A stretch of 53,250 nt of DNA from Frankiaceae bacterium. Its GTDB lineage: Bacteria > Actinomycetota > Actinomycetes > JAFAQI01. Position 1 is the stretch's first letter; each line of letters opens with the position of its first letter. The translations under genes were made by a program, and so were the position numbers. Positions 15,165-30,719 of the stretch are shown piece by piece. The stretch is from assembly GCA_025929315.1 (NCBI GenBank), contig JAICMI010000004.1, forward strand, positions 1 to 53,250, written 5' to 3'. The notes under the pieces were generated by a model, which had not been told where the DNA came from, searched no databases, and saw only the letters and a list, made by a program, of their open reading frames with translations.

Positions 15165-15956
15165 TTGCCGACCCCAGCGCCCGGTCGACGCTCTGTGCTC
15201 ATCGCCGGAGCGATGCTGCCGGTCGTCCGCTATCTGCCGGCGCCGGCGCTCGCCTCGAGCAGCGGCGCGCCTGGTGCCGTGACGGCCTACCGGTTCCTGA
15301 CGGCGCACCAGGCGGCGACCGTCATCGAGGCAACTGCGCGCCTTGTCCCGGGGCCGCAGGACGACCCGCTCGAGGCCGGTCACCCCGGCGCACGCGAAGC
15401 AGGAGTCGTGCACTTCATCGACCGGTTGCTGTCGGCGTTCGAGGAGTCCCCGCCGGCGATTTTCGCCGGTGCCCCGTGGAGCAACCGGCACACGTCGGGC
15501 CCGGATCACATGAAGAAGTTCCTGCCCCTGGTCGAGCGGCAGGACAAGGCCTGGCACGAGCGCCTCAAGCAGCTGCGCAAGCAGGTTGCCGACGCCGTCG
15601 TCAAGCTCGACAAGGCGGCGGCCGCCGACGGTTACAAGGACTTCGTCGCTGCGCCGATGAGCGAGCAGGACAAGCTGCTGACCGACCTCGCCGACGTCCG
15701 CGACGTGCTGTTCAGCCTGACGATCGATGCGATGTACTCGGTGCCGGAGTACGGCGGCAACCACAAGCTCGCGGGGTGGCATGAGATCGGCTGGCCGGGC
15801 GACATCCAGCCGGTGGGCTACACCAAGGCGCAGGTCGAGAGGGACGACGGTCCGGACCCGGTCGGGACCAACGATCTTCCCGCTGTGCAGGAGCTGATCG
15901 ACGCGCTGCCGATCCTGACGCGCGCCCGCGCGGCTCGGAGCTCGACCGGTGGCTGA
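15165..15956 (+). CDS. Gluconate 2-dehydrogenase subunit-3-like (Tat-exported GMC partner)
   Basis: GRRSVL twin-Arg signal; PGAREAGVVHFIDRLL; YGGNHKLAGWHEIGWPG; GGAGG RBS before the TTG start. Confidence 0.85.
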   Translation: MPTPAPGRRSVLIAGAMLPVVRYLPAPALASSSGAPGAVTAYRFLTAHQAATVIEATARLVPGPQDDPLEAGHPGAREAGVVHFIDRLLSAFEESPPAIFAGAPWSNRHTSGPDHMKKFLPLVERQDKAWHERLKQLRKQVADAVVKLDKAAAADGYKDFVAAPMSEQDKLLTDLADVRDVLFSLTIDAMYSVPEYGGNHKLAGWHEIGWPGDIQPVGYTKAQVERDDGPDPVGTNDLPAVQELIDALPILTRARAARSSTGG

Positions 15957-17640
15957 CCGCGCAGTCGTTGTCGGCAGCGGCGCGGGAGCGAGCGTCGTAT
16001 GTCTCGAGCTCGCGCGCGCCGGCTGGGACGTCGTTGTGCTCGAGCGCGGTCCGGCCTACTCGCGTCACCCGGACAAGCCGTCGCACCGCTTCTCCAACGA
16101 CGAGCTCAAGGCCAACCGCTACTTCGAGATGCCCGACCCGCTGACCGAACCGCGTGCGTTCCGGGCAAGTCCGAGCGACAAGGACACGGTCGGCGAGGTC
16201 AACCAGCTCGCTGCCGTCGTGGGCGGTGGCACGGTGCACTGGGACGCCAAGGTGCCGCGGTTCTGGAACATCGACTTCAAGAAGAAGTCGTTGCTCGGCG
16301 CCTATCCCGGCACCGACGTGTGCGACTGGCCGTTCTCCTACGACGACATCGCGCCGTTCTACAAACGCGTCGAACATCTGCTCGGCGTGCAGGGTCCGGC
16401 CACGCTGCCGTCGGCGCCGACCCTGAAGCACGCTCCGGGCAAGCGCGGTTACGACATGCCGCCCGGGCCGCAGCAGTTCTCGTCGATGACGATCGCGTCA
16501 GGCTGCACGGCGGTCGGCATGCATCCCTATGCCTTCCCGATGGCCGCCAACTCCAGGGAGCACGACGGGCGACCGGCGTGCAACGACTGTGGCCAGTGCA
16601 GTGGCTACGGCTGTCCGAACAATGCGCGCATCGGCGCGCTGGCGGTGCTCGACGAGGCTTGCGAGACCGGTCGCGTGAAGATCCGCCCGCAGACGTTCGC
16701 GCATCGGGTCCGGCTCGACGGACGCAAGGCCAAACGGGTCGAGTGGATCGGACTGGGCGGTCGTCGCGGCAGTGATCGCGCAGATCTCGTCGTACTTGCT
16801 GCTTCTGCCATCGAGACGTCGCGCCTTGCCCTGCTGTCCGATCTGCCCGACCCGCACGACCGCATCGGCCGGGACATGATGTTCCACAACTTCGTCGACG
16901 GCTTCGGCATCTTCCTGGACCGGCGCATGCACGCCTATCGCGGGCGATCGACCACACAGTGCTGTGAGGACCTCGCTGACCCGGACTACCCGGGCATGCG
17001 CGAGGCAGCGCAAGCAGCGGGCCTGCCCTATGTGCGCGGTGGCATCATGGAGCTCGGCGGCTCGCAGGACCCCATCGCCGAAGCCAACATCTATCGCTTC
17101 CTGCTCGAGACGATCCACTCCGCCGACCAGACCGGTCAAGCAACGCCGCCGTTCGGCACCAGGTTCAAGGCGTTGATGCGGTCGAGCCCGCTGCGTGACC
17201 GGCTCGCGGGCGTGTCGATGGTCGGCGAGGACCTGCCCTACGCGACCAACCGCGTTGATCTGGCCGGGGTCAAGGACTACCGCGGTGTCCCCGTCGCGCG
17301 GCTGACCTACTCACCCGGTCAGCATGAGCAGGTGGCGGTGGCGTTCTGCGCCTCGCAGATCACTGCGCTGATGAAGGCAGCCGGTGCGACAGTGTCGGCG
17401 GCGGTGCCGGAGTCGCTCGGCAACATGACGGCAATCCCGCACGGCGCACACATCATGGGCGGGATGCGCATGGGCGCCGACCCCAAGACGAGCGTCACCG
17501 GCAAGCACGGCATGGTGCATCACTTGGACAACGTGCTGGTCGCCGACGGGTCCGTGTTCCCGACGTCCGGTGCTCAGAACCCGACGCTCACGATCATGGC
17601 GACCGCTCTCAGGAACGTGACGGCCCTACTGCACGGCTAG
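15949..17640 (+). CDS. GMC family FAD oxidoreductase (catalytic subunit)
   Basis: VVVGSGAGA, VGGGTVHW, Cys cluster CNDCGQCSGYGCP, AHIMGGMRMG, FPTSGAQNPTLT. Confidence 0.9.
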   Translation: MADRAVVVGSGAGASVVCLELARAGWDVVVLERGPAYSRHPDKPSHRFSNDELKANRYFEMPDPLTEPRAFRASPSDKDTVGEVNQLAAVVGGGTVHWDAKVPRFWNIDFKKKSLLGAYPGTDVCDWPFSYDDIAPFYKRVEHLLGVQGPATLPSAPTLKHAPGKRGYDMPPGPQQFSSMTIASGCTAVGMHPYAFPMAANSREHDGRPACNDCGQCSGYGCPNNARIGALAVLDEACETGRVKIRPQTFAHRVRLDGRKAKRVEWIGLGGRRGSDRADLVVLAASAIETSRLALLSDLPDPHDRIGRDMMFHNFVDGFGIFLDRRMHAYRGRSTTQCCEDLADPDYPGMREAAQAAGLPYVRGGIMELGGSQDPIAEANIYRFLLETIHSADQTGQATPPFGTRFKALMRSSPLRDRLAGVSMVGEDLPYATNRVDLAGVKDYRGVPVARLTYSPGQHEQVAVAFCASQITALMKAAGATVSAAVPESLGNMTAIPHGAHIMGGMRMGADPKTSVTGKHGMVHHLDNVLVADGSVFPTSGAQNPTLTIMATALRNVTALLHG

Positions 17641-18462
17641 GCGGGCTCGGGCGGCGCGAAGATGCGGGCCCTCGCGGTAGGACCGCGGCGCGAGTGCGGT
17701 GCCGGCGCGCAGCGCGCGAACACCCGCCGCAGCCGCGACTCCGGTCAGGGGCGGCGCGACGACGCCGTACATCCGCCGCGCCCACGACGGCAGCAGTCCG
17801 AGCGCAAGTCCCGCACCGGCCGCCCACGCCGGACGGGCCGGGGTCGCCCAGCGGACCCACCGCGGCATGGGTGGGGCGAGGACGTAGCGAGCCAGCTCGC
17901 GCGTGCGCCCGTCGGCGGTGAGGTCGGCACGAATCGTCGCGAAGTAGTCCGCCATCTCCGCGTTCGTGGCGGGCACGGTGTCCGGATCCAGTCCGACGAC
18001 GACCGCCGCGCGCGTCTGCTCGGCGTAGTAGCAGTCGATCTCCTCCGTGCTGAGCCGGCCGCCGGCGCGTTGGTAGGTCGTCAGGAACGACTCCACCTCG
18101 CTGCAGTGCACCCATCGCAGCAACGTCGGGTCGTCCGCTCGGTAGCGCACGCCGGACTCCGGGTCGACGCCCCGCACCTTGCCGTGGATGGCGCGGACGC
18201 GCGCTCCGATCGCGTCGACCTCGGCCGTGCTGCCGAACGACACCACGCCGACGTAGTCGGCCGTCCGGAGCAGCCGGCCCCAGGGATCGGCGCGGAAGTC
18301 GGAGTGGCGCAGCACGCCGGCCATCGCCGCCGGATGCAGTGCCTGGAGCAGCAGCGCCCGCAGTCCGGCGATCCACATCACGGGATCGGCGTGGACGCGC
18401 CACGTGACGCTGTCGGGACCGAACAGACCGGGGTCCGCTTCGGGGCGCGACGTCGTTGTCAT
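17626..18462 (-). CDS. Oxygenase MpaB / DUF2236 family protein
   Basis: GLFGPDSVTWRVHAD, LLLQALHP, Y.ADDP.LL.WVH motifs. Confidence 0.85.
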   Translation of the reverse strand: MTTTSRPEADPGLFGPDSVTWRVHADPVMWIAGLRALLLQALHPAAMAGVLRHSDFRADPWGRLLRTADYVGVVSFGSTAEVDAIGARVRAIHGKVRGVDPESGVRYRADDPTLLRWVHCSEVESFLTTYQRAGGRLSTEEIDCYYAEQTRAAVVVGLDPDTVPATNAEMADYFATIRADLTADGRTRELARYVLAPPMPRWVRWATPARPAWAAGAGLALGLLPSWARRMYGVVAPPLTGVAAAAGVRALRAGTALAPRSYREGPHLRAARARLAVQ

Positions 18463-18473
18463 CTCTGCCAGGG

Positions 18474-18731
18474 TCACACGTCGGCCGGTCGTCTGCTGCG
18501 CAGGGCCATGGCGGTACGACGGGCGAGGACGAGCCAGCACAGGAAGGCGACCGCCGACAGCAGCGCGGGGAGCCAGTGGCCGAGCAAGGTCGAGGCGGCT
18601 ATCGCGCACCCGAATGCAAGAAGATTCGCGACGGCGTCGTAGACCGGCGCCACGAACCGTCGGTTGATGACGTGCGAGACCGCAATCACCAGCCCGCAGG
18701 CGAACGTGACCGAGAGGAGAAAGCTCACCAC
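18474..18731 (-). CDS. Small hypothetical membrane protein (85 aa)
   Basis: Three hydrophobic helices; GAGGGGAG RBS-like sequence before the GTG at 18731; sits in operon position. Confidence 0.55.
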   Translation of the reverse strand: MVSFLLSVTFACGLVIAVSHVINRRFVAPVYDAVANLLAFGCAIAASTLLGHWLPALLSAVAFLCWLVLARRTAMALRSRRPADV

Positions 18732-18747: not shown

Positions 18748-19983
18748 TCAGGGCTTGATGGCCACCTTGACGGCGCCGCTGTTCGCCTGGTCGGCGATCG
18801 TGCAGAACGCGTCCCGCCACTGATCGAGTGAGAACACGTGGGTGAGCATGGGACTGAGGTCAACGCGGCCGGCAGCAGCCAGTTCGAGGTAGTGCTCCAT
18901 GGCGTGCTTGCGCACGCCGTTGACGGTTTCGATGCCGAACGCGTTGCTGCCGACCCAGCGCAGCTCTTTGAAGTCGAGCGGGCTCCACTCCCAGCGCGCC
19001 GGCGCATGCACGCCCGCCTTGACGATGGTGCCGCGGGTCGTCAGCAGGCGAGCCGAGATCGCGGCCGAGTCGGGCTTGCCCACGGTGTCGTAGGCCACGT
19101 CGACGAAGCCGGGATGACACATCGGCAGGCCCGGCTGGTCGGGATGACGACGCAGCACACCGCCGGACCACTGCGCCAGCGTCTCGAGGACCTCGTCGCC
19201 CGGCTCGTGAGCAGTGACCAGGTGCGCGCCGAGCTCCTTGGCGAGTGCGGCCTGGTGAGGGAAGCGGGCCACGACGGCGACGTCGACGTCTGGATAGAGC
19301 GTGCGGAGGAGCGCCACAGCGCACAGCCCGAGCGAGCCGGCACCCCACACGAGCGCCTTGCCGCCGGGCGGAGGCGGGTTGTGCGTCACGGCGTGCAGCG
19401 ACACCGAGAACGGGTCGGCAAACACAGCCCTGTCATCGGGTACGACGTCCGGCACCCGGTGCAGCATCGACGAGTGCGCCGGGAGCAGCTCGGCGTAGCC
19501 GCCGGTGGCGTCGGCCGCAACACCGGTGTGGATGCCGGCACTGATGTCGCCCGAGGTGAAGCTCCAACACAGGCTCAGGTCGCCAGCTTCGCACGACGGA
19601 CAGACCGGGTCGATGCCGCGCGGTCGGCACGACAGCCACGGGTTGAGGACGACGCGGTCACCCACGTCGAACCCCTCGGCTTGCGGCCCGAGCGAGACGA
19701 CCTCGCCCACCACCTCGTGGCCGAGCACCTGCGGGAACGAGCAGAACGCGATCATCGCGCTGTCCGCGCCGCCCTCACCGAAGTCGAGCAGCACCTGCTT
19801 GGAGTCCGAGCCGCAGATGCCGGTGAGCAACGGTCGGACGACGAGCCAGTCCGGTCGCAGCGGTGCGGCGTCGGGCACGTCACGCAGACCGACCGGCGAG
19901 ACGGCGAGATTGCGCATCAGCGCGGGGGCATCGGCGGGCGCTTTCCAGCCGTCCGGCTCCGTCCCGAAGACGAGCGCCTTCAT
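18748..19983 (-). CDS. Zinc-binding (MDR) alcohol/polyol dehydrogenase
   Basis: GICGSD, LGHE, structural Zn C..C..C..C, GAGSLG. Confidence 0.9.
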   Translation of the reverse strand: MKALVFGTEPDGWKAPADAPALMRNLAVSPVGLRDVPDAAPLRPDWLVVRPLLTGICGSDSKQVLLDFGEGGADSAMIAFCSFPQVLGHEVVGEVVSLGPQAEGFDVGDRVVLNPWLSCRPRGIDPVCPSCEAGDLSLCWSFTSGDISAGIHTGVAADATGGYAELLPAHSSMLHRVPDVVPDDRAVFADPFSVSLHAVTHNPPPPGGKALVWGAGSLGLCAVALLRTLYPDVDVAVVARFPHQAALAKELGAHLVTAHEPGDEVLETLAQWSGGVLRRHPDQPGLPMCHPGFVDVAYDTVGKPDSAAISARLLTTRGTIVKAGVHAPARWEWSPLDFKELRWVGSNAFGIETVNGVRKHAMEHYLELAAAGRVDLSPMLTHVFSLDQWRDAFCTIADQANSGAVKVAIKP

Positions 19984-20027
19984 GTGCGAGACCTCATTTG
20001 CGCCGCCCAAGCTCTGCCGCTTTACTG

Positions 20028-20053
20028 ATCTTCGCGGTTTCTTTTAGATCTTA
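20028..20053. promoter_or_regulatory. Shared motif copy 2 (core TCTAAAAGA on the minus strand, 20040-20048)
   Basis: ATCTTCGCGGTTTCTTTTAGATCTTA lies in the divergent MDR/SDR intergenic region. The core matches the other two copies; the flanks are degenerate. Confidence 0.55.
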
Positions 20054-20075: not shown

Positions 20076-20861
20076 ATGGACGTGCAGGGGGCGACGGTCC
20101 TGCTCACCGGCGCATCGTCCGGCATCGGCGCGGCTACGGCGCGCATGCTCGCCAAGCGCGGAGCGGTGCTCGGGTTGGTCGCGCGACGCAAGGACAGGTT
20201 GGAGGAGGTGCTCGCCGACTGCCGGGGTGACAGCCCGGAATCGCGGATCTGGGCGGTCGACCTGTCCGACCTCGACGCCGCCGAACACGTCGTCCGTGAA
20301 GCCATCGAGCACTTCGGTCACCTCGACGTCCTGCTCAACAACGCCGGTGCGCCCAAGCGCCGCCACGTCCGCGACCTGACGCCCGCCGAGGTCGAGGACA
20401 CGATGCGAATCAACTTCTTCTCGCCGGTGCGGATGATGCTGGCGGCGCTGCCGTCAATGCTGGAGCGCCGTCGCGGCCTGATCGTCAACGTCGGCAGCAT
20501 GGCCGGACGCATCGGGGTGCCGACCGAGTCGGCCTACTCGGCGAGCAAGTTCGCCATCGGCGGATGGAGCGAGGCATGCGCCCTCGACCTTGCCGGGTCG
20601 GGCGTCGACATCCGGCTGATCTCGCCGGGCGCATTTGCCACCGAGATCTGGGACCAGCCCGGCAGTGACGACGCGTTCTACGACGGGCCGATGGCGCCAC
20701 CGGAGGAGTGCGCAGAAGCAATCCTCGCGGCCATCGAAGGTGAGACGTTCGAGACCTACGCGCCGGCCGGCTATCGCGACATCGTCGTCGACAAGACACG
20801 CGACTTCGACCAGTTCAAGTCCATGGTGCTGAGCCACTCGGATGCAGGAGCGACATCGTGA
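20076..20861 (+). CDS. SDR family oxidoreductase
   Basis: TGASSGIG, NNAG, YSASK; AGGAG RBS. Confidence 0.9.
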   Translation: MDVQGATVLLTGASSGIGAATARMLAKRGAVLGLVARRKDRLEEVLADCRGDSPESRIWAVDLSDLDAAEHVVREAIEHFGHLDVLLNNAGAPKRRHVRDLTPAEVEDTMRINFFSPVRMMLAALPSMLERRRGLIVNVGSMAGRIGVPTESAYSASKFAIGGWSEACALDLAGSGVDIRLISPGAFATEIWDQPGSDDAFYDGPMAPPEECAEAILAAIEGETFETYAPAGYRDIVVDKTRDFDQFKSMVLSHSDAGATS

Positions 20862-21493
20862 GCATGCACGACGAGGTTCTTGCCGCAGCAAAGGACATGC
20901 TGCGGCTCAACCTCACCGCAGGAACCAGCGGCAACGTGTCCGGGCGACTCGAGGACGGCTCGGTCGTCATCACGCCGTCGTCGATCGACTACGAGACGAT
21001 GACGCTGGCCGACCTCGTCGTACTCGATGCGTCGGGCGAGGTCATCGAAGGAACCCGTTCGCCGTCGAGCGAAAAGCTCGTGCACATCGCCTGCTACAAG
21101 CGTTTTCCGGAAGTCCAGTCGGTCATCCACGCGCATCCGGTCTATGCGTCGATGTTCGCGGTCGCGCGCCAACCGATCCCGTCGGCGATCGACGAGTTCG
21201 CCGTCTACGTCGGCGGTGACGTGCCGGTCGCGGACTACGCGATGACCGGTTCGTCAGAGCTCGGCGAGAACGCGGCCGACTGTCTCGTTGATGTCGGCTC
21301 GGCACTCCTCGCCAACCACGGCACGGTGACGGTGAGCGACTCGCCGGAACGCGCGATCCACCAGCTCGGCGTTGTCGAACGCGCAGCACAGATCGTGTGG
21401 GGTGCGCGCATCCTCGGCGGCGACGCCGAGTTGCCCTCGTCGACCAACGAGACCCTTGGCGGCTACTACCGAATGATGCGCAAGCCCTCGTGA
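20858..21493 (+). CDS. fucA: Class II aldolase (L-fuculose-phosphate aldolase-like; resembles M. tuberculosis Rv0727c)
   Basis: GTSGNVS, ITPSS, PSSEKLVH, IHAHP and LLANHG Zn ligands. Confidence 0.85.
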   Translation: MSMHDEVLAAAKDMLRLNLTAGTSGNVSGRLEDGSVVITPSSIDYETMTLADLVVLDASGEVIEGTRSPSSEKLVHIACYKRFPEVQSVIHAHPVYASMFAVARQPIPSAIDEFAVYVGGDVPVADYAMTGSSELGENAADCLVDVGSALLANHGTVTVSDSPERAIHQLGVVERAAQIVWGARILGGDAELPSSTNETLGGYYRMMRKPS

Positions 21494-22812
21494 CTGCGGC
21501 ATCCGACCAGATCACGGTCGGCGTCGACATCGGGACCACGTCGGTCAAGGCCGTCGCGGTGAACGCAGCCGGCGAAGTCGTTGCCCGCACGCGGGTGCCG
21601 CACAAGATCCAGGCAACGAGCGACCGGCTTCGACACGATGCCGATCAGGCCTGGCGCCGCGGGCCGCGTCGTGCATTGAAAGCCCTCGGCGGTCTAGCGC
21701 CGAAGGCGCTCAGCGTCACGGGCATGGTGCCGTCGATGGCGGCGGTGGATCGTCGCGGCAAACCGACAACGGACGGGCTGCTCTACGGCGACGCCGAGGG
21801 CCGACCCGCCGATCGCCACGGAATGCCGGATCTCGTCGGGGACGCCCCGGAGTTCCTGCGTGCACTCGTGCGCATGGCCCCGGAAGCCGCCGGCTACTGG
21901 TCGGCGCAGACGACGGCGACCGTCGCTCTCGGTGGGCCGCCTGTCCTCGCCGGCGACGTCGCGATGGTGTTGTGGCCGCTGTCAACCGGTGAGGCCTGGG
22001 ACCAGTCGGTGCTCGACGAATGTGGCGTCTCGGTCGACCAGGTGCCGCAGATCGTGCCGAGCCGTACGCCGGTCGCCGACGTCGACGGAATGCTGCTCGA
22101 CGGTGGCGCGATCGACGTTGCCTGCGAGCGGATCATCTCCGGCATCGAGGACGGCGACGCGCTCGTCATCTGCGGCAGCACGCTGATCGTCATGGCAGCT
22201 TTGCCGCCGGGGGCGACGCCTCCGGCGGAGATCATCGCCTACCCCGACGAGACCGGGGCGCAGACCGCGACTGCTGCCAGCAACGCCGGCGGATTGTTCC
22301 TCAACTGGGTGGATCGGACGACCGTGAAGTCGCGGGGTCCCGTCGACCCCGAGCAGGTGCCGGTCTGGCTGCCCTACATCCGCGGCGAGCGAACGCCGTG
22401 GAACGACCCGAACCGGCGCGCTGTCCTGGCTGACGTCCACCAGGGTCACGACGCCGCGGCAGTTCGACGGGGCGCGTTCGAGGCGAGCGCGTTCGTCGCG
22501 CGCCACTTGCTCGAGATGATGGATCTGTCGCCGAGACGCATCGTCGCGCTCGGTGGCGGCACTCAGGTCGACGGCTGGATGCAGGCACTCGCGGACGCGC
22601 TTTGCGCGCCGGTCGATGCAGCGACGGATCCCGAGACCGGCGCCATCGGCGCCGCGTTCTGTGCGCGTCTCACCGCCGGCCTCGAAGGCGACCTGCGCGA
22701 CGGTGCCCGGTGGGCGCGCTCCGCTCGACGCTTCGAGCCGAACGCCGACTGGACCGACCCGGTGAAGCGCCGCTACACCAGATTCCGCGAGCTCGCTCAG
22801 CAAGGTCGTTAG
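21490..22812 (+). CDS. FGGY-family carbohydrate kinase (resembles Rv0729 XylB)
   Basis: GVDIGTTSVK, LPYIRGERTP, GGGTQ..GWMQ. GTGA overlap with the aldolase. Confidence 0.85.
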   Translation: MTAASDQITVGVDIGTTSVKAVAVNAAGEVVARTRVPHKIQATSDRLRHDADQAWRRGPRRALKALGGLAPKALSVTGMVPSMAAVDRRGKPTTDGLLYGDAEGRPADRHGMPDLVGDAPEFLRALVRMAPEAAGYWSAQTTATVALGGPPVLAGDVAMVLWPLSTGEAWDQSVLDECGVSVDQVPQIVPSRTPVADVDGMLLDGGAIDVACERIISGIEDGDALVICGSTLIVMAALPPGATPPAEIIAYPDETGAQTATAASNAGGLFLNWVDRTTVKSRGPVDPEQVPVWLPYIRGERTPWNDPNRRAVLADVHQGHDAAAVRRGAFEASAFVARHLLEMMDLSPRRIVALGGGTQVDGWMQALADALCAPVDAATDPETGAIGAAFCARLTAGLEGDLRDGARWARSARRFEPNADWTDPVKRRYTRFRELAQQGR

Positions 22813-24299
22813 GCCGCGAAGCACCAGATGCCGGTGGCTTGGGGCGGCACGCGCGAGGACTGGTCGAAGTAGGTGCCGGTGCCGAACACGATGTTCTGGC
22901 CCGAGATGGCGACTCCGCCGGACGCGGCGGCGGCAACGGGCACGTGCCAGACCAGCAGGCCGTCCGTCGCGTCGTAAGCGTTGACGGCGAACTCCGTCGT
23001 GTCGGAGGCGAAGACGATGCCGCCGGCGACCGTGACCGGCGCGTAGGACGGCGCCTGCGCGGGCTGGTTCCACACGACGGCGCCGGTGACCAGATCGACG
23101 GCGTGCAGCGACGTGAGTCGTTCCGGGTCTGTGGTGGTGCCGGCCCCGCCATCGGGAGAGGCGGGGATGGCGCTGTCCCCGTAGAGCACTGGATGGTGTG
23201 AGGTCGGATCGGTTGCGACGGCGACCGATCCGATGAAGCCTCCGACGCTCGAGCCGACGGCGGCTTGCACGCTGCGTACGAGCCGGCCGTTGTCACGATC
23301 GATGGCGTAGACCCAGCCGGACTTGCCGGCTTGTACGGCGACGTCCTTGCCGCCGACCTCGGTGAGAACGACCGACGCGCCGAAGTCGTTGTCCTGACCA
23401 TGGTTGGCGGCAGGCTCGTGGAACGTCCAGACGGGTCGGCCGTCCGTGGCGCGCAGCGCCCATACGCGTTGCGTGTCCCTGCCCGACTGAAGGTTGCAGT
23501 TGCCCCCACCGAAGAAGAGCATCTGCCGCCGGGGGTCCAACGCAGGCGAGCTCCAGATGTCACCGCACGCCGTTTCCGGGTGCGAGCGTCTGCCCAGGTT
23601 GTGCACGACCTCGTCTTTTTCGGCGTCGTACTTCCAGCGCAGTGCGCCGGTGCGCGCGTCGATGGCGAGCATGCCACCGTCCGCGGAGTGGGGGTCCTCG
23701 TTGGAGTCCATCCCGACGAACACGACCGGATCGCGACCGTGTCCGCGGTTCCAGACCACGGGCGAGGACTCGACCTCGGTCGTGCTGGCGGGGTGCGACG
23801 GGTCGGCGTCGACGGCCCAGCGGGCGCGGCCGTTGTCAGCGTCGACCGCGTAGACCGTGCCACCTGCCGCGAAGACCACCGTCGGGCCCAGGGAGGGCAC
23901 CTCGACCGCACTCGCCGAGGCAGTGATGCGGCCATAGGAGACGTCGTGCCGGTCGACGTGCTCCGGGTTGTGGCCGGTATCGAACGTCCACGTGTCCTTG
24001 CCGGTGGCCATGTCGACCGCATGCATCCTGCCGGTGCCGTCACCGACGAAGGCGTGGCCCCAGGCAATGGCGGGTTCTGCGGTGACGGCGCCGTCCGTCT
24101 GAAGGAACCAGCGCGGCTGGAGCTTGGCGGCGCCGAGCGCCGTGAGGCTGCTGCACGTGGCATCGGCTGTTCGTGCTGGGTCGTGCTGGAACATCGGCCA
24201 GTCGGTGTTGCACGGAGCGGCGGCGTGTGTGACCGCCGGACTCACGACCGTCATCGCGGCGAGCGAGAGCCCGGCCCCGAGCAACGTCGCGCGCCGCAT
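22809..24299 (-). CDS. Secreted PQQ-binding-like beta-propeller (PVA-dehydrogenase-like, no haem domain)
   Basis: Signal peptide MRRATLLG; DWPMFQHD; repeated A.D..TG...W docking motifs; IWSSPALD; DNDFGAS. Confidence 0.8.
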   Translation of the reverse strand: MRRATLLGAGLSLAAMTVVSPAVTHAAAPCNTDWPMFQHDPARTADATCSSLTALGAAKLQPRWFLQTDGAVTAEPAIAWGHAFVGDGTGRMHAVDMATGKDTWTFDTGHNPEHVDRHDVSYGRITASASAVEVPSLGPTVVFAAGGTVYAVDADNGRARWAVDADPSHPASTTEVESSPVVWNRGHGRDPVVFVGMDSNEDPHSADGGMLAIDARTGALRWKYDAEKDEVVHNLGRRSHPETACGDIWSSPALDPRRQMLFFGGGNCNLQSGRDTQRVWALRATDGRPVWTFHEPAANHGQDNDFGASVVLTEVGGKDVAVQAGKSGWVYAIDRDNGRLVRSVQAAVGSSVGGFIGSVAVATDPTSHHPVLYGDSAIPASPDGGAGTTTDPERLTSLHAVDLVTGAVVWNQPAQAPSYAPVTVAGGIVFASDTTEFAVNAYDATDGLLVWHVPVAAAASGGVAISGQNIVFGTGTYFDQSSRVPPQATGIWCFAA

Positions 24300-24334
24300 G
24301 CGACAACGTTCGCCGCCGGCGGGCGGGGACCTGC

Positions 24335-25312
24335 CTAGCCGAGCACCTCGGGGTTGATGCAGTTGTTGGGCTTGTCGCCGGTCAAGATCGCGGCGATGCC
24401 GTCGGCCATCTGCTGCGCGTGGTTGGCCTCGACGTTGTAGGTCGCGCCGCCGATGTGCGGGGTGAGCACCACGTTGGGCAGCTGCGCCAGCGCTGAGTCG
24501 GGCGCGAGGACCTCACCGTCGAAGTGGTCAAGTCCTGCGCTCGCGAGATGCCCCGACCTCAGGGCGTCGACAAGTGCATCGACGTCGTGCAGCGCCGCCC
24601 GCGCCGCGTTGAGATAGATCGCGCCTTCTTTCATCTGCGCGAACTGCTTCTCGCTCATCATCTTCATCGTCTCGGGGACGACCGGGGCGTGCATCGACAC
24701 CACATCGGCCTCGGCCAGGAGGTCGTCGAGGGCGTAGGTCGCGTCGTCCGCGTAGGGGTCGTAGGCGATGACCCGCATGCCGAGCCCCTCGAGCCTCCAG
24801 GCAAGTGCGCGGCCGATCGCGCCGTACCCGACGATCCCCGCGGTGCGGCCGTTGACCTCCCAGCCGCGGAAGCGCTGATAGGGGATCGTGCCGTCGCGAT
24901 AGGTCTCACCGGCGCGGACGTCGTCGTCGGCGGGGACGATGTGACGGGCTGCTGCGAAGAGCAGACCGACCGTCAGCTCGGCGACCGCGTCGGCGTTGCG
25001 ACCGGGCGCGTGGAGCACCGGGATGCCCCGCTCGGTCGCCGCCGGCACGTCGACGTTGGTGGGGTCGCCCCGGGTCGCGCCGATGACGACCGGCTTGAGG
25101 TCAAGGGTGGCCGGGCCGACCCGGTCGCCCTCGCAGATCACGATCGTGGCGCCCTCGGCCTGCACTCGCTCCGCAAGCTGTTCGTCGTTGTAGAGCCGCA
25201 GCGGCTTCTGCTCGATGAAGGGCTCGTAGACGATGTCCGCAAGCTCTTTGAGCGCGTCAAAACCCGGTCCCCGCATGGGCGCGAGCACCAGCGCCCTCTG
25301 TTCCCTGCTCAT
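24335..25312 (-). CDS. D-2-hydroxyacid dehydrogenase (resembles Rv0728c SerA2)
   Basis: TRGDPTNVDV, PGRNADAVAE, GYGAIG, LNAAR, LTPHIGG. No ACT domain. Confidence 0.9.
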   Translation of the reverse strand: MSREQRALVLAPMRGPGFDALKELADIVYEPFIEQKPLRLYNDEQLAERVQAEGATIVICEGDRVGPATLDLKPVVIGATRGDPTNVDVPAATERGIPVLHAPGRNADAVAELTVGLLFAAARHIVPADDDVRAGETYRDGTIPYQRFRGWEVNGRTAGIVGYGAIGRALAWRLEGLGMRVIAYDPYADDATYALDDLLAEADVVSMHAPVVPETMKMMSEKQFAQMKEGAIYLNAARAALHDVDALVDALRSGHLASAGLDHFDGEVLAPDSALAQLPNVVLTPHIGGATYNVEANHAQQMADGIAAILTGDKPNNCINPEVLG

Positions 25313-25335
25313 CTTCTAAAAGATAGTATGGACGG
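25312..25335. promoter_or_regulatory. Shared motif copy 3 plus two overlapping leaderless divergent promoters
   Basis: ATCTTCTAAAAGAT has 5-bp arms. On plus, TAGTAT lies 6 nt before GTG 25336. On minus, TATCTT lies 7 nt before ATG 25312. Confidence 0.75.
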
Positions 25336-26853
25336 GTGAAAGAGCTCATCTACGCCCGGCTCTTCCTGCCGGCCGCGGAGCGGCACGCGCAACGAGCGGC
25401 CATCCACGACGGCACCTACTCGGCGACGTTCGGCGAGCACGCCACCCGCGCGCTGCAGCTGACCGACGCGCTCGGCTCCGGTCTCGGGCTCAGCCGCGAG
25501 GACCGGTTCGCGGTCGTCGCTCTCAACGGTCACCGCTACCTCGAGCTCTACCACGCCGCCTTCCTCGGCGGCGCCGTCATCAACCCCGTCAACTACCGCC
25601 TCGCCGACCGCGAGACCGCCCACGTCCTCAAGCACTCCGGCGCCCGAGTCGTGTTCGTCGACGCTGCTTTCGCCGAGCGGGTGCAGGCGATCGTCGACTC
25701 GGGCGAGACATCCGTCGAGCGGGTCGTGTCACTCGACGACGACTACGAGGATCTGCTCGCTTCTGGCAACGACGTCGTGCCGGCCGAGCCGGACGAAGAG
25801 TCGCTGCCGATGTTGATGTACACCGGCGGCACCACCGGCATGCCCAAGGGCGTCGCGAGCACGCAGCGCGCGCAGATGCTCAACCTCTACCACCTCGCAA
25901 TGGTGCAGGGACTTGCCTTCAACGAAGAAGCGGTCTACCTGCACCACATGCCGATGTTCCACTCGATGGGCGCCAACGCTGCACTCTCGGCGGCTGCGTT
26001 CGGCACCGAGGCAACTGTCATTCCGGCGTTCGAGCCGGGCGCGTTCATGACCGCGGTCGCGAAGCACGGCGTCACCGAGACGGTGCTCGTGCCGACGATG
26101 ATCGCGATGATCCTGCGGCATCCCGACTACGCGCCGGATCGGCTGAGCAGCCTCAAGCGCATCGGCTACGGCGGCATGGCGATGCCACATGCGCTGCTGG
26201 CCAAGCTGCAGGAGTCGTCGCCCGACATCCAGCTGCTGCAGGGCTACGGCATGACGGAGGCGTGCCCGACGCTGACGTTCCTGACGGCCGAGGATCACCT
26301 GCGCGGCGAGGACAAGCGGCACTCCGTCGGACGGCCGCTGCCCGGTGTCGATGTCGCGATCTTCGACGGCGACGGCAACAGGCTTGCCACCGGTGAGGTC
26401 GGCGAGGTCTGCGCGCGCGGCGGCAACATCATGACCGGCTACTGGGAAAACCCCGAAGCGACAGCCAAGGTGTTCCGTGACGGCTGGTATCGCACCGGCG
26501 ACCTCGGCAAGTTCGACGCCGACGGCTACCTCTACCTCGTCGACCGTGTGGACGACATGATCGTGACCGGTGGAGAGAACGTCTACTCGATCGAGGTCGA
26601 GAACGCACTGACCACCTATCCAGGCGTCGTGCAGGTTGCCGTTGTCGGCGTGCCCGACGAGGTCTGGGGCCAACGCGTGCACGGCATCGTCGTCCTCGCT
26701 CCCGACGCTGCCGGTACGACGGAAGAACAGCTCGCCGAGCACGCGCGGAAGTCGATCGCCGGCTACAAGGTCCCCAAGACGTGGGAGCTGCGCACCGAAC
26801 CGCTTCCGGTGTCCGGCGCGGGCAAGCCGCTCAAGCGCGAACTCCGCTCCTAG
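25336..26853 (+). CDS. Long-chain acyl-CoA synthetase
   Basis: YTGGTTGMPKG, GYGMTE, YRTGDLG, TGGENVYSIEVE and AGKPLK motifs. Confidence 0.92.
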   Translation: MKELIYARLFLPAAERHAQRAAIHDGTYSATFGEHATRALQLTDALGSGLGLSREDRFAVVALNGHRYLELYHAAFLGGAVINPVNYRLADRETAHVLKHSGARVVFVDAAFAERVQAIVDSGETSVERVVSLDDDYEDLLASGNDVVPAEPDEESLPMLMYTGGTTGMPKGVASTQRAQMLNLYHLAMVQGLAFNEEAVYLHHMPMFHSMGANAALSAAAFGTEATVIPAFEPGAFMTAVAKHGVTETVLVPTMIAMILRHPDYAPDRLSSLKRIGYGGMAMPHALLAKLQESSPDIQLLQGYGMTEACPTLTFLTAEDHLRGEDKRHSVGRPLPGVDVAIFDGDGNRLATGEVGEVCARGGNIMTGYWENPEATAKVFRDGWYRTGDLGKFDADGYLYLVDRVDDMIVTGGENVYSIEVENALTTYPGVVQVAVVGVPDEVWGQRVHGIVVLAPDAAGTTEEQLAEHARKSIAGYKVPKTWELRTEPLPVSGAGKPLKRELRS

Positions 26854-26855
26854 CA

Positions 26856-27983
26856 ATGGACTTTGCGCTCGACGAGCACCACCAGGCCTGGGTCAAGGAG
26901 GTCCGCGAGTTCCTGCGCGCCGAGTTCGACGTCGAAGCCGAGGAAGAGTCACGTCGACGTGGTGGTGAGGCGAGCGGCCCGGTGCTGCGCAAGTTCCGCG
27001 CCAAGATGGCGAAGCGCGGCTGGCTCGCCCTGACCTGGCCGGTCGGCTACGGCGGCTCCGGCCGGACCACGTTCGAGCAGTTCCTGCTCATGGACGAGTT
27101 CGCCTACTGGGGTGCGCCCGCCATCGACCTGACGGCGAGTGCGGTGGCGCCGACCATCATGCGGTTCGGCACCGACGCGCAGAAGAAGCGCTGGCTGCCC
27201 GCCATCTTGTCCGGCGAGGTGGAGTGCGCGATCGGCTACTCCGAACCTGATGCCGGCAGCGACCTCGCGTCCCTGCGCACGAGCGCTCGTCGCGACGGCG
27301 ATGTGTGGGTGGTCAACGGCGAAAAGCTCTGGAACACGGGAGCCGAGTTCGCCACGCATGAGTGGCTGGTCGTGCGCACGGACCCGGATGCGCCAAAGCA
27401 CAAAGGCTTGTCGGTGGTCATGGTGCCGATCGACGCGCCGGGTGTGACCGTGCAGCCGATCGTCACCTGGGGTGGGATCCGCACCAACGCGGTGCACTTC
27501 GAAGATGTCCGTGTCGATGCCGACGCATTGATCGGCGCCGAGAACGACGGCTGGCGTTACGTCACGACCGCGCTCGACTTCGAACGGGTGTCGATCGGCG
27601 TCACCGGCGGGCTGCGCCGCTTGTACGACGAGACGCTGCGCACGATCACGTCGTACGAAGTGGATGTCCGGCATGGGCTCGCTGAGCTGTCCGTCAAGAT
27701 CGAGAACGCGCGGCTGCTCAACTACCGCGCCGCCTGGATGGTCGACCAGGGGCTCATGCCCAACGCGGAAGCGTCGATGACAAAGGTCGTGACGACCGAG
27801 CTGCAGGCGTCGTTGTCAGCCGCGGTGCTGGAGCTGGTCGACCCGACGTCGTTCGCCGCTGAGCTGGCGCGGCACCTGTACCGGCAGGCGCCCTACCTGC
27901 GTTTCGGTGGCGGCACCAACGAGATCCAGCGCGACATCATCGCCCAGCGCGGCCTAGGCCTTCCGCGAGGCGCGTCCCGGTAG
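26856..27983 (+). CDS. Acyl-CoA dehydrogenase, catalytic subunit (FadE26/FadE29-like)
   Basis: GYSEPDAGSDLASL, NGEKLW, LDFER, FGGGTNEIQRDIIA. Confidence 0.88.
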   Translation: MDFALDEHHQAWVKEVREFLRAEFDVEAEEESRRRGGEASGPVLRKFRAKMAKRGWLALTWPVGYGGSGRTTFEQFLLMDEFAYWGAPAIDLTASAVAPTIMRFGTDAQKKRWLPAILSGEVECAIGYSEPDAGSDLASLRTSARRDGDVWVVNGEKLWNTGAEFATHEWLVVRTDPDAPKHKGLSVVMVPIDAPGVTVQPIVTWGGIRTNAVHFEDVRVDADALIGAENDGWRYVTTALDFERVSIGVTGGLRRLYDETLRTITSYEVDVRHGLAELSVKIENARLLNYRAAWMVDQGLMPNAEASMTKVVTTELQASLSAAVLELVDPTSFAAELARHLYRQAPYLRFGGGTNEIQRDIIAQRGLGLPRGASR

Positions 27984-28083: not shown

Positions 28084-29742
28084 TTAGCCGGTGGCGAGGT
28101 GGAAGGCTTGGATGCCGGACGCCGGCTGGAGCGGGTCGACCGCGTGACCGAACGCCTTGTACTCCAGGTCCGTCTCGCGCGTTCCTGAACCGACCACGAC
28201 GGTCGAACCGTCGACGACCGCCGTCGATGATGGCGGACCGAGCACCGGTGACTGCCACAGCGGCAGGCCCGTCCTCGTGTCGATGGCGATCACCGAGAAC
28301 GTCGTGGTGTCCGGGATGAACGCGACACCGTTGACGATCGACGTGTGCGCGTAGGACGGGCCCGCGAGTCGATAGGTCCAGTCGATGTGACAGGTCGCCG
28401 GGTCGAAGCCGCGCACCGAGACGGTGCTGTCGACGGCCTGGCCCGCTGAGTGCGGCACGGGGATGGCGGTGGTCCCGACGACCTGCACCTTGCCGCCCGG
28501 GAACGTCTCGACGGCAGGTGTCCCGAGGAAGCCACCGATCCCGAAGCCGCTCTGCAGGCCGCCTTCTTGCCCGACGTGGCAGACACTCACGTTGGCGCCG
28601 GTCATCTCGTCGCGGACGTAGTAGTCACCGCTCTTGCGTCCTTCGCCGACGACAGTGCGGCCGTTCAACGTGAAGATGTTGGGCGAGGCACCGAAGTCTG
28701 CGTCGCGATCAGCGTCGGCGATCTGGGCCTTCGGCGTCGCCAGAGCGTCGGCGGGCCGGAAACGCCACCGCAACCGGCCAGTGGTCGCATCCAGCGCAAC
28801 CATGCTCTCGGCGTAGTTCTCATGTGCGGCGTAGGCCTTGTCGGCGTATGAGCAGCTCGCCGTGCCAAACGCGACCACGTCGCGGGCGGCGTCGACAGCC
28901 GGGGACGACCAGACGCCGCCGCATCCCCAGCCCTGACCGGAGCCGATCGTCAGGCCGCGCTCGCCGGTGTAGGTGTCACCGGTCTCGACGTCGTACTTCC
29001 ACAACGGTTTGAAGTGCCACTGCTTGGCGCCCGGCTCGAGCCGAACCGCGATCAGTCCGGTGCGACCGACGTGCGGGTCGTTGTGCACATCGATGCCGAC
29101 GTAGATGCGGCGCACACCGTCGGTCGTCGCGACCGCCGGCGACGACTCCACCTCGGCGACCGGAGCCGCGTCGCTGCTGTCCTGCTGCTTCTGCAGCGCG
29201 GGAGTGCGTGGATCGAGGTCGATCGTGGCGAGCTCCTTGCCGGTCTTGGCGTCCAGCGCCCAGAGGCTCGACCCGCCACCGAACAGCACCACCTGCCGTT
29301 CGCGGCCACTGGCCGGGTCGCGGTAGGGCTCGATCGTCGCGCTGGACACGATGCGGCCGAACGCGGTTCGGGCGTGACTGCTGATCGCGAACGTCCAGCG
29401 CACGGCACCGGTAGCGATGTCGATCGCGTAGAAGGTGCCGTCCCAGGACCCGACGTAGGCCGTCCCGGCGGCGATGGCCGGTGAAGCGGTGATCGAGTCA
29501 GGGGTGTGCATCACCCACGCCGGCACCAGTGTCGACGCCGTCGTCGCGTCGATGGGTGAGCAGCCTGCTCCAACGTTGAAGCTGTGTACGACGCCGGCGC
29601 CGAACGATCGCCAATCCGGACTCGCGCACTTCTGGCCGGCGCCGGGAGTCGCGACGGCACACGTCGCGCCGACCAACGAAGCGGTAGCAACAACAGCCCC
29701 GACGAGACGTCGCCGAGACACGCCGAGTGGCCTGCCGGCCAC
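28084..29742 (-). CDS. Secreted (Tat-like SRRRL) PQQ-binding-like beta-propeller, paralog of 22809..24299
   Basis: DWRSFG, GSWDG, VESSPAV, GGVWSSPAVD, DADFGASP. GTG start overlaps the upstream TAG. Confidence 0.8.
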   Translation of the reverse strand: MAGRPLGVSRRRLVGAVVATASLVGATCAVATPGAGQKCASPDWRSFGAGVVHSFNVGAGCSPIDATTASTLVPAWVMHTPDSITASPAIAAGTAYVGSWDGTFYAIDIATGAVRWTFAISSHARTAFGRIVSSATIEPYRDPASGRERQVVLFGGGSSLWALDAKTGKELATIDLDPRTPALQKQQDSSDAAPVAEVESSPAVATTDGVRRIYVGIDVHNDPHVGRTGLIAVRLEPGAKQWHFKPLWKYDVETGDTYTGERGLTIGSGQGWGCGGVWSSPAVDAARDVVAFGTASCSYADKAYAAHENYAESMVALDATTGRLRWRFRPADALATPKAQIADADRDADFGASPNIFTLNGRTVVGEGRKSGDYYVRDEMTGANVSVCHVGQEGGLQSGFGIGGFLGTPAVETFPGGKVQVVGTTAIPVPHSAGQAVDSTVSVRGFDPATCHIDWTYRLAGPSYAHTSIVNGVAFIPDTTTFSVIAIDTRTGLPLWQSPVLGPPSSTAVVDGSTVVVGSGTRETDLEYKAFGHAVDPLQPASGIQAFHLATG

Positions 29743-30719
29743 TAGCAGCCGGTCTGAAGGACGAGCTGGCCCGACTTGTTGGTGATCGGCGACGCCGGGA
29801 ACGGTGGGGCCACGCCACCACCCGCGACGAAACCACACGTGCCGACGTAGATCGCCGGAAGCGGATAGGGACCCTCCGGTGACCCCTGCGGGTCCGGGTC
29901 CTCGTAGATCTGCAGGCCGGGCTCGACGTAGGTCGTCTGGTTGTGCTTGTGCCACCACGCCATGCTGTGACCGCCGCAGTCCTTGGTCGTGTCGGACGGG
30001 CCGGCGCACGACGGCGGGTCCCAGGTGTGGCCGTCGTAGTTGGCCGCGTCACGCGTCTTGGCGTGCTTGTCGCCGGCCTGGTAGGCCACGCGGCGTTGTG
30101 ACTGTGCGGAGAAGCACAAGCCGTCGGCGCAGGCTCCGAAGCCGGCGTCGGCGCCGGGCAGCGGGTGGGTGAGGAAGAACTGAGTGTCACCGCCGGCGAC
30201 CTGGGTCAGCCAGTCGACTGCGGACAGCGGCGTCACGTTCGCGACGATCGCTCCGCCGTCACTCGGGCCGTTGGAGATCTGCTCGGAGCCGTCGTGCTCA
30301 CCGCTGTCGAGGTTGTCGTCGGCGCCGAAGTAGGCGTGCAGCTCGCCGCTCTGCGGGTCGATCGGCGTGCCCTTCTGGTCGGGCAGCGGGGTGAAACCAT
30401 TCTTGTCGACGCGGGCGCACTTGGCGGTGCCGGTGAAGTCGAGGCAGATCACGACCGCGTTGGCGCTGGTGCCGTCGGGCGTCTGCGGAACCCCGACGAC
30501 CACGTAGCGGTGGTCCTTGCCGGCGATCTGGAAGGTCGCGGCGTAGCACCCGTCTTCGGTGTACTGCGGGTGAGCGCTGTCGTCGGCGCTGGTGCTGCAG
30601 CCCTGCTTGGTCGTGTCGTAACCACCGCCACTGACCGCGAGCGCGGGCACGCTCGCCGCGGCGAGGACTGCCAGCAGCGAGGGGATGACGATCGTGCGCG
30701 GACGAGTGCGGAGCTTCAC
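29742..30719 (-). CDS. Secreted Cys-rich hypothetical protein
   Basis: Signal peptide ending VPALA; GAGGAG RBS before GTG; translationally coupled to the propeller gene. No family recognised. Confidence 0.7.
   Translation of the reverse strand: MKLRTRPRTIVIPSLLAVLAAASVPALAVSGGGYDTTKQGCSTSADDSAHPQYTEDGCYAATFQIAGKDHRYVVVGVPQTPDGTSANAVVICLDFTGTAKCARVDKNGFTPLPDQKGTPIDPQSGELHAYFGADDNLDSGEHDGSEQISNGPSDGGAIVANVTPLSAVDWLTQVAGGDTQFFLTHPLPGADAGFGACADGLCFSAQSQRRVAYQAGDKHAKTRDAANYDGHTWDPPSCAGPSDTTKDCGGHSMAWWHKHNQTTYVEPGLQIYEDPDPQGSPEGPYPLPAIYVGTCGFVAGGGVAPPFPASPITNKSGQLVLQTGC

Follow-up and report, generated by a model that had tools for sequence, protein, structure and literature searches.

Orthologues of the mycobacterial fucA-serA2-xylB genes in a lipid-catabolic region of a Frankiaceae genome: a possible kinase-dehydrogenase-aldolase module for polyol cleavage

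Glycerol and erythritol kinases phosphorylate a terminal CH2OH group, and in the pairs formed by glycerol kinase with glycerol-3-phosphate dehydrogenase and by EryA with EryB in Brucella, this action of an FGGY kinase is followed by oxidation of the adjacent alcohol to a keto-phosphate of the dihydroxyacetone phosphate (DHAP) type. The genes closest to those discussed here are those of Mycobacterium tuberculosis H37Rv that we take to be Rv0727c (fucA position, aldolase), Rv0728c (serA2, dehydrogenase) and Rv0729 (xylB, kinase), presumably annotated as fucose, serine and xylose enzymes. The present analysis concerns the counterparts of this trio in a 53,250-nucleotide stretch of Frankiaceae DNA (hereafter, the window), which is contig C156 of a metagenome-assembled genome (MAG) of a high-GC actinobacterium (G000; 68% complete, 2.65 Mb). 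The trio represents one conserved functional unit that has been repeatedly built into beta-oxidation operons outside Mycobacterium, and its members may together split a polyol.

The trio and its two conserved partner genes, called from codon-position GC and Pfam matches, are arranged in the window as follows.

18748..20010, minus strand: Zn-dependent dehydrogenase of the medium-chain dehydrogenase/reductase (MDR) type, polyol-dehydrogenase-like, 420 aa (Pfam ADH_N/ADH_zinc_N)
20076..20861, plus strand: short-chain dehydrogenase/reductase (SDR) oxidoreductase, first gene of the operon (Pfam adh_short, 185 bits)
20858..21493, plus strand: class II aldolase-fold metalloenzyme (Pfam Aldolase_II, 162 bits)
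21490..22812, plus strand: divergent FGGY kinase, 440 aa (Pfam FGGY_N and FGGY_C)
24335..25312, minus strand: D-2-hydroxyacid-dehydrogenase-family enzyme, 325 aa, called the dehydrogenase below (Pfam 2-Hacid_dh_C, 179 bits)

The aldolase, kinase and dehydrogenase open reading frames (ORFs) are real genes, since GC at the third codon position in frame is 0.82–0.90 and the Pfam matches are strong. The start codon of the kinase is the GTG at position 21490, not the listed start of 21397; it shares bases with the aldolase stop codon (GTGA), and the SDR stop and aldolase start overlap by 4 bases; these overlaps indicate that the SDR, aldolase and kinase genes are translationally coupled. The Zn-dehydrogenase gene is divergent from this operon, and the best PDB relatives of its product are a ketose reductase and threonine, xylitol and sorbitol dehydrogenases, all weak matches at ~70 bits.

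When species-representative genomes were scanned with an alignment of the kinase, 80 loci were recovered, of which ~57 are in Mycobacterium or Mycobacterium-like MAGs, and the window proteins were compared with those of five named genomes (M. shimoidei, M. ahvazicum, M. europaeum, M. scrofulaceum and Mycolicibacterium vulneris; H37Rv was not in the set). The best match of each window protein belongs to the adjacent trio in 5/5 of these genomes; the kinase finds one match per genome, at 46–50% identity, the aldolase match of ~230 bits is followed by none above 59, and the dehydrogenase reaches ~405–447 bits where its SerA1-type paralogue gives ~157. Searching back from M. shimoidei recovers the window genes, and each of the three is single-copy in G000. 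As judged by sequence, the window aldolase, kinase and dehydrogenase are thus reciprocal best hits and orthologues of the mycobacterial trio, to which they are 51–57%, 44–50% and 58–65% identical, respectively; an earlier note on this DNA had proposed Rv0727c, Rv0729 and Rv0728c as their orthologues, and the proposal is borne out in both search directions with the positional orthologues of the five named species. The motifs on which the earlier note relied are likewise present (the dehydrogenase carries RGDPTNVD and DGTIPYQRFRG, the kinase HDADQAWRRGP) and recur among the mycobacterial counterparts, RGDP.NVD in 37/37 dehydrogenases, DGT[IV]PYQRFRG exactly in 6/37, and HDA..AWRRGP in 31/67 kinases. 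The kinase has more than 2,500 homologues, and its nearest named relatives come from Frankiaceae/Frankiales MAGs.

In the ~57 mycobacterial loci, the trio runs in the order aldolase, dehydrogenase, kinase, with the first two on one strand and the kinase divergent, inside the gene order rplO, sppA, often an SDR and a Zn-dehydrogenase, LCM-type methyltransferases, the trio, GNAT, methyltransferase, secY and adk; we take this interval to be the Rv0723–Rv0733 order of H37Rv, with the trio at the Rv0727c–Rv0729 position. The window does not follow this core synteny: its SDR-aldolase-kinase operon occupies the plus strand, with the dehydrogenase 1.5 kb away on the minus strand. Same-family relatives and Mycobacterium retain the ancestral trio layout, and the window is rearranged. 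The window SDR, the only close copy in G000, is 49–57% identical to the trio-proximal SDR of Mycobacterium and of the same-family relatives, and the Zn-dehydrogenase has a 62–70% identical relative at a distance of 0–4 kb from the trio in many mycobacterial loci and is 83% identical to its counterpart in G015, the closest relative. In Mycobacterium, where the trio lies amid ribosomal/secY and methyltransferase genes, these two are the only conserved partners.

The names fucA, serA2 and xylB are family labels and not established functions, because the curated cut-offs for XylB, FucA and SerA are all missed. The kinase is a member of the FGGY superfamily by both domains, the DIGTT and GGG motifs and the catalytic Asp, with D11/G13/T14/T15, D210 (the D of GAIDVACE) and G357–G359 invariant in the kinase alignment, and its Pfam FGGY_N match spans only profile positions 2–98 of 245. 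It scores 118 bits against the XylB model TIGR01312 (cut-off 380), 63 bits against NF011601 (cut-off 912) and 37 bits against the LsrK model; a query of the ESM Atlas returned only actinobacterial clusters named 'xylulokinase'. The aldolase scores 244 bits against NF004527 (cut-off 308), 104 against FucA TIGR01086 (cut-off 400), 96 against AraD TIGR00760 (cut-off 389) and, in its second-best NCBIfam match, 155 against the L-ribulose-5-phosphate 4-epimerase model NF005123 (cut-off 251). Similarly, the dehydrogenase scores 203 bits against the phosphoglycerate dehydrogenase model TIGR01327 (cut-off 454), and its 325 residues give no Pfam match to an ACT domain. A literature search on Rv0727c/28c/29, serA2 and FGGY with SCP2 found no functional study, which agrees with the earlier note's remark that the substrate of the mycobacterial genes is not established; serA2 has been treated as a serine-pathway gene in a genome-scale study (10.1101/555763).

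The catalytic residues of all three families are intact, whereas the specificity residues of FucA and a conserved Arg of the SerA-like proteins are replaced. The aldolase metal ligands H91/H93/H154 and E72 correspond to H92/H94/H155 and E73 of FucA and are kept in 50 trio aldolases, and in the same 50 the phosphate site N26/S41/S70/S71 (N29/T43/S71/S72 in FucA) is invariant or conservatively replaced. FucA Y113 and F131, which we assume to be the acid/base residue and the hydrophobic wall that set the aldehyde specificity of the Escherichia coli enzyme, give way to D112 (D in 46/50, E in 4/50) and to S or T, and the residue after D112, E113, is invariant. The dehydrogenase is a D-isomer-specific 2-hydroxyacid dehydrogenase by its GxGxxG and Arg-Glu-His signatures, with the NAD site G159/G162/G164 and the triad R238/E267/H286 universal in the alignment; E61 is invariant where the SerA-like outgroup has Arg in 92%, and R81, R105 and R133 are clade-specific arginines. 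That the database names are nonetheless correct, so that an L-fuculose-phosphate aldolase, a D-3-phosphoglycerate or glycerate dehydrogenase and a xylulokinase would be unrelated chance neighbours, is scarcely credible: the best-scoring NCBIfam models do carry those names, and sources label homologues 'xylulokinase', but the scores fall far short of all the curated cut-offs, the FucA specificity residues and the SerA-like Arg are replaced, no fucI, fucK or xylA lies nearby, and the co-occurrence, adjacency and sister-family fusion described below argue for a single pathway.

The same residues bear on a second alternative, a sugar-acid route like the tetronate pathways, in which a C4–C6 aldonic acid would be phosphorylated, oxidised at its 2-OH or 3-OH and decarboxylated as a beta-keto acid in the manner of OtnC/3OtnC, yielding DHAP or a pentulose phosphate together with CO2. 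The known tetronate kinases belong to the DUF1537 family and not to FGGY, which speaks against such a route. The R238/E267/H286 triad with its three extra invariant arginines would suit it, as would the aldolase match of 91 bits to the OtnC model NF043034, and a precedent exists in the 3OtnK/3OtnC kinase/decarboxylase pair, which converts oxidised gluconate to ribulose-5-phosphate in vitro (PMC12994016). A score of 91 bits is well below the 250-bit cut-off of that model, the locus offers neither an OtnI-type isomerase nor an acid-sugar transporter, and coupling to genes for thiolase, enoyl-CoA hydratase (ECH) and acyl-CoA dehydrogenase (ACAD) would go unexplained, so the route is judged unlikely.

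The distribution of the genes indicates that they work together. The kinase family is rare, being present in 3/300 sampled Actinomycetota genomes, all of one genus; in a sample of 151 Mycobacterium genomes, the kinase is found in 66 and the dehydrogenase in 66, both occur in 63, and the two are adjacent wherever both coordinates are listed. In three genomes of this sample the dehydrogenase query matches only a SerA1-like protein weakly (~148–151 bits), and in a fourth the dehydrogenase orthologue sits at a contig edge. Five MAGs (Microthrixaceae and unclassified Actinomycetes) have the kinase standing alone and an adjacent dehydrogenase-aldolase pair elsewhere in the genome, and their kinases cluster with those of Acidimicrobiia. 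Because the trio genes co-occur, adjoin and are fused in a sister family, they are argued to serve one pathway, of which kinase and dehydrogenase form the core and the aldolase is a frequent third member. In a FastTree of the kinases (topology only), the window and G015 kinases fall near the Acidimicrobiia clade, apart from other same-family kinases, unlike the dehydrogenase, which nests among the sequences of its own family with a support of 97 in a quick maximum-likelihood tree; the misplacement of the kinase could reflect replacement by transfer or a long-branch effect.

The trio is further tied to acyl-CoA genes by a putative operator. The sites and the additional genes that flank them are listed here.

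15108..15117, plus strand: putative operator between an SDR/ACAD-beta operon (minus) and the gluconate-2-dehydrogenase-small-subunit/GMC operon (plus)
15165..17640, plus strand: gluconate-2-dehydrogenase small subunit and GMC flavoprotein, with the same putative operator motif as the trio
20039..20048, minus strand: putative operator TCTAAAAGAA, one mismatch, between the Zn-dehydrogenase and SDR genes
25315..25324, plus strand: putative operator, exact TCTAAAAGAT in ATCTT-CTAA-AAGAT, in the 23-base dehydrogenase/FadD gap, abutting a TAGTAT -10-like box
25336..26853, plus strand: acyl-CoA ligase of FadD type (Pfam AMP-binding, 261 bits; NF004837, 460 bits, cut-off 476)
26781..27983, plus strand: ACAD downstream of FadD (all three ACAD Pfam domains), its true start probably later than 26781

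With at most one mismatch, the 10-base core TCTAAAAGAT occurs at 3 sites in the window against 0.14 expected. All three sites lie in divergent promoter regions, the core being embedded in the palindrome ATCTT-CTAA-AAGAT that abuts TAnnnT boxes, and the dehydrogenase and FadD genes diverge from one common putative operator; the sharing of a motif with acyl-CoA genes, which the earlier note had reported, is thereby upheld. Since the core is common to their promoter regions, the SDR-aldolase-kinase operon and the dehydrogenase are probably co-regulated with FadD-ACAD, with the SDR/ACAD pair and with the GMC operon. At the G015 locus (L092), the 15108-type site is identical and the 20039-type site is kept with one core base changed, whereas the motif is absent from the other same-family loci; it would therefore mark a regulon specific to this lineage, the module itself having no such feature. 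Elsewhere in G000 there is one further exact copy only, on contig C145 at ~6618 (locus L100), upstream of a LIV-type binding-protein gene. The C145 island was considered as a related island and judged different. Its class II aldolase paralogue is 24% identical, and its other genes include those for a fused double ACAD, amidohydrolases, a family III CoA-transferase and a sulfatase. A sigma-70 consensus scan of 14.9–28.2 kb found no promoter, a result that is uninformative in an actinobacterial host.

The coupling to beta-oxidation recurs in relatives. Eight same-family genomes keep the ancestral layout, and in 7/8 of them beta-oxidation genes surround the trio: dehydrogenase, aldolase (4/8) and thiolase share one strand with overlapping ends, locus L094 adds an ECH, and the flanks hold ACAD-alpha/beta, a TLP1-type thiolase, a conserved SDR and a fused double ACAD. 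In Acidimicrobiia, the run comprises thiolase, a gene of the inositol monophosphatase family, kinase, fused ACAD, MaoC, CMD and an SCPx-type thiolase, the fused ACAD being 55–61% identical to the family-f1 copy. At loci L060–L080 (e.g., L065:7207-7992), the inositol-monophosphatase-family gene is wedged between thiolase and kinase with overlapping ends. Genome G047 similarly has an ECH, a TLP1-type thiolase and an ACAD beside its dehydrogenase-aldolase pair. The window ACAD (26781–27983) was considered as an orthologue of the conserved fused ACAD and rejected, identity being ~33% and three true fused copies lying elsewhere in G000. A point of G000 has a chance of 0.14 of falling within 3 kb of a gene for an ACAD, FadD, ECH or thiolase; the approximately four separate lipid associations are therefore unlikely to be accidental, with the proviso that related loci are not independent.

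Such neighbourhoods might also be read in the manner of the Lva pathway and of ACAD10/ACAD11, the kinase phosphorylating a hydroxyacyl-CoA and an ACAD eliminating the phosphate, with dehydrogenase and aldolase relegated to a side reaction. The known 4-hydroxyacyl-CoA kinases are of the APH type and not FGGY. Same-family relatives, Acidimicrobiia and L081 do have the conserved fused double ACAD next to the kinase, and the FadD, SDR, ACAD and thiolase of 4-hydroxy-acid catabolism (PMC12440821, PMC11342911) all have counterparts here. However, this scheme would leave unexplained the co-occurrence and adjacency of kinase and dehydrogenase and the FGGY-dehydrogenase fusions, the phosphate site of the aldolase suits a small phospho-ketone, and no ACAD lies near the mycobacterial loci; it is considered very improbable.

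A fused sister family also bears on the lipid connection. A search for longer relatives of the dehydrogenase recovered ~80 proteins of 1,250–1,300 aa that join FGGY, 2-Hacid_dh, SCP2 and Aldolase_II, together with shorter dehydrogenase-SCP2-aldolase and FGGY-dehydrogenase fusions; the corresponding search with the kinase gave no fusion, only a mis-started 778-aa ORF. In most of the fusions the dehydrogenase module is 38–48% identical to the window dehydrogenase over nearly its full length (P0126: 233 bits, 45% identity, full length), as against no more than 155 bits for SerA-like proteins in that search and no more than 165 bits for solved 2-hydroxyacid dehydrogenases. In the quick maximum-likelihood tree, which has SerA-like long proteins as its sole outgroup, the trio dehydrogenases are sister to the fusion modules (SH-aLRT 99 each, 98 together). 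Two mycobacterial genes for the 1,290-residue fusion were examined for their neighbours: that of L112 (G442) adjoins ALDH-like (aldehyde dehydrogenase), 3-beta-HSD-like (3-beta-hydroxysteroid dehydrogenase), WS/DGAT and FadD genes, and that of L113 (G466) adjoins SDR, ERG2/sigma-1-receptor-like and cytochrome P450 genes. Fusion and trio genes coexist in 5/6 fusion-carrying Mycobacterium genomes, and for this reason their substrates probably differ.

Taken together, these observations point, tentatively and with somewhat less than even confidence, to a pathway in which kinase, 2-dehydrogenase and aldolase act in turn to convert a polyol end into DHAP and an aldehyde that feeds acyl-CoA catabolism. 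The FGGY kinase would phosphorylate the terminal CH2OH of the polyol end; the dehydrogenase, which has extra arginines, would hold its substrate by this anionic group and oxidise the adjacent secondary alcohol to a ketose-1-phosphate-like head; and the class II aldolase, through its metal and phosphate sites, would cleave that head into DHAP and an aldehyde. The SDR and the polyol-type Zn-dehydrogenase may prepare the substrate or process the aldehyde, and lineages without an aldolase would handle the keto-phosphate otherwise, an Lsr-like thiolytic split being conceivable as pure speculation. Because the module stands under the same putative operator as FadD-ACAD, the leftover carbon skeleton probably enters acyl-CoA catabolism, and such feeding would in turn indicate a lipid-linked or lipid-derived polyol and not a free pentulose; a lipid-linked polyol is thus modestly preferred over a small soluble polyol or a sugar acid.

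Several points weigh against this proposal. Genomes of this kind are rich in acyl-CoA genes (~30 per Mb), related loci are not independent samples, and lipid or acyl-CoA neighbours of the trio are absent in Mycobacterium, the source of most loci. The conserved partners, a Zn polyol dehydrogenase and an SDR, equally fit soluble polyol catabolism, and because the dehydrogenase keeps the Arg-Glu-His triad of 2-hydroxy-carboxylate enzymes, a sugar acid is a possible substrate. Moreover, four same-family genomes that are 91–100% complete (G003, G022, G006 and G016; loci L093, L096, L097 and L098) keep dehydrogenase, thiolase and kinase while no aldolase orthologue is found anywhere in them, the best match being 31–34% identical, so DHAP release by aldol cleavage cannot be universal. 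The 'aldolase' might itself epimerise instead, since D112, at the position of FucA Y113, resembles the acid/base Asp of L-ribulose-5-phosphate 4-epimerase. Lastly, no SCP2 or other lipid-binding domain was found in the unfused trio, nor any Pfam SCP2 match in the window; the window kinase is only 34% identical to the fusion kinase module, over 134 residues, and the window aldolase is 36% identical to the fusion, no closer than to solved FucA structures, so that the fusion is a paralogous system of like design and not the same one.

The strongest competitor, somewhat unlikely in our estimate, is the catabolism of a small soluble polyol or deoxy-sugar (a pentitol, a tetritol or a 5-/6-deoxy sugar), from which the kinase and dehydrogenase, with the Zn-dehydrogenase or SDR, would form a ketose phosphate that the aldolase-fold enzyme would cleave to DHAP and a C2/C3 aldehyde or epimerise to xylulose-5-phosphate, the lipid neighbours being coincidental or reflecting the use of glycolipid head groups. 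All five conserved families are classic polyol/sugar enzymes, the 155-bit epimerase match and D112 are at home in such a route, the mycobacterial trio has its SDR and Zn-dehydrogenase for partners and no lipid genes, the trio is without SCP2, and a GMC oxidoreductase with a gluconate-2-dehydrogenase small subunit stands under the same motif. On the other side are the same-strand, overlapping packing with thiolase/ECH in two separate lineages, the putative operator shared with FadD-ACAD and the fusion of the dehydrogenase's sister clade to SCP2. Likewise, no sugar transporter, isomerase or sugar-type regulator was found in the window or in ~90 related loci; the Pfam annotation of the ~15 kb around the trio contains neither sugar transporter nor isomerase, as the earlier note had said, and the window has a single transporter, an ABC system of the LIV type at 39.6–43.9 kb.

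Returning to the proposed DHAP-releasing pathway, a narrower and bolder version, which we consider rather improbable, holds that the trio and its SCP2-fused sister family constitute an undescribed head-group-clipping pathway for polyol-terminated lipids, with the hopanepolyol side chain, an oxidised phytosphingoid base or another alkyl-tetrol as candidate lipids. Kinase and dehydrogenase would assemble a DHAP-like head on the lipid, from which the aldolase, or a thiolase where a lineage lacks it, would free DHAP; what remains for beta-oxidation would be an acyl-CoA or a fatty or isoprenoid aldehyde. If true, this would make Rv0727c–Rv0729 lipid-catabolic rather than sugar or serine genes. As for the earlier note's broader claims, the embedding in lipid catabolism stands for the window, the same-family relatives, the Acidimicrobiia and the SCP2-fusion sister, but not for the mycobacterial trio, which is without lipid neighbours; similarly, the suggestion that this context could reassign the mycobacterial genes stands in so far as their names are justifiably questioned, but no reassignment follows yet.

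The rest of the window was annotated as follows.

1080..3023, minus strand: neutral/alkaline ceramidase, first gene of the window and 18 kb from the trio (Pfam Ceramidase_alk, 512 bits)
9123..10670: ALDH
17626..18609, minus strand: MpaB/Lcp-family oxygenase (rubber-oxygenase catalytic domain, 229 bits)
22809..24299, minus strand: secreted PQQ/BamB-type beta-propeller (Pfam PQQ_2/PQQ) with a signal-peptide-like N-terminus
28084..30009, minus strand: second PQQ/BamB-type propeller, a secreted paralogue 31% identical to the first
30929..31621 and 36785..37441, plus strand: TetR-family regulators, candidate binders of the palindromic operator

The first propeller gene, downstream of the dehydrogenase, separates it from the kinase, so that the trio is not contiguous in the window. 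It is not part of the conserved module, a counterpart having been found in none of the related loci examined, and the second propeller is likewise without counterpart there. The MpaB/Lcp oxygenase gene lies downstream of the Zn-dehydrogenase gene on the same strand. G015 has the GMC flavoprotein at 85% identity, and there an upstream ORF sits in the small-subunit position; at that locus (L092), the GMC oxidoreductase and Zn-dehydrogenase genes abut with no ORF between them. Several FadD, ACAD, ECH and SDR genes also occur in the window. The ceramidase hints that sphingolipids are among the substrates of the island, and together with the ALDH, MpaB/Lcp, FadD/ACAD/ECH/SDR and TetR genes it would suit the catabolism of a complex lipid, but no gene of this set is conserved together with the trio.

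For the mycobacterial genes, the analysis poses a testable question, namely which polyol, possibly lipid-linked, slow-growing mycobacteria and soil actinobacteria split into DHAP, and it advises caution against using the current fucA/serA2/xylB names in metabolic reconstructions. The M. tuberculosis trio and its slow-grower orthologues share with the window the signature motifs and the SDR and Zn-dehydrogenase partners; they differ in their rplO-secY context, in contrast with the lipid-catabolic context of the window, its SDR-aldolase-kinase operon and its dehydrogenase on the opposite strand behind a propeller gene. The fusion family (e.g., in M. kansasii, M. persicum and M. simiae) has the same three catalytic families, with dehydrogenases that form a sister clade sharing clade-specific residues and with aldolase modules that retain the metal and phosphate sites and the invariant E113. 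Its kinase is of another FGGY subfamily, labelled an autoinducer-2 (LsrK-type) kinase by one source, whereas the trio consists of three separate genes without SCP2.

Among biochemically described routes, FucK-FucA, RhaB-RhaD and DrdK-DrdI-DrdA (the DHAP shunt/5-deoxyribose salvage) likewise combine a kinase with a class II aldolase that releases DHAP and an aldehyde, and the window aldolase matches solved structures of the FucA/DrdA type at E-values of 1e-27 to 1e-32, with the Zn ligands and the equivalent of E73 kept. The trio differs from these fucose, rhamnose and 5-deoxyribose routes in having no isomerase and an obligate partner of the 2-hydroxyacid-dehydrogenase family, and from FucA in particular in lacking Y113 and F131 and in scoring below the family cut-offs. 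In the processing of autoinducer-2 by LsrK, LsrG and LsrF, the product of an FGGY kinase, a phospho-diketone, is finally split into DHAP and an acyl-CoA, which sets a precedent for linking an FGGY kinase to CoA chemistry and a thiolase-type step; LsrF itself is a class I aldolase-fold protein, not thiolase-fold. No LsrG or Lsr transporter accompanies the trio here, and the window kinase is distant from the LsrK model (37 bits). The kinase-then-dehydrogenase logic proposed for the trio is that of the glycerol and EryA/EryB routes, except that the dehydrogenase belongs to the D-2-hydroxyacid-dehydrogenase family, instead of being a GlpD/EryB flavoprotein or GpsA, and that an aldolase follows. 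As read here, the trio is a new kinase-aldolase 'DHAP-releasing' variant whose obligate partner is a member of the 2-hydroxyacid-dehydrogenase family.

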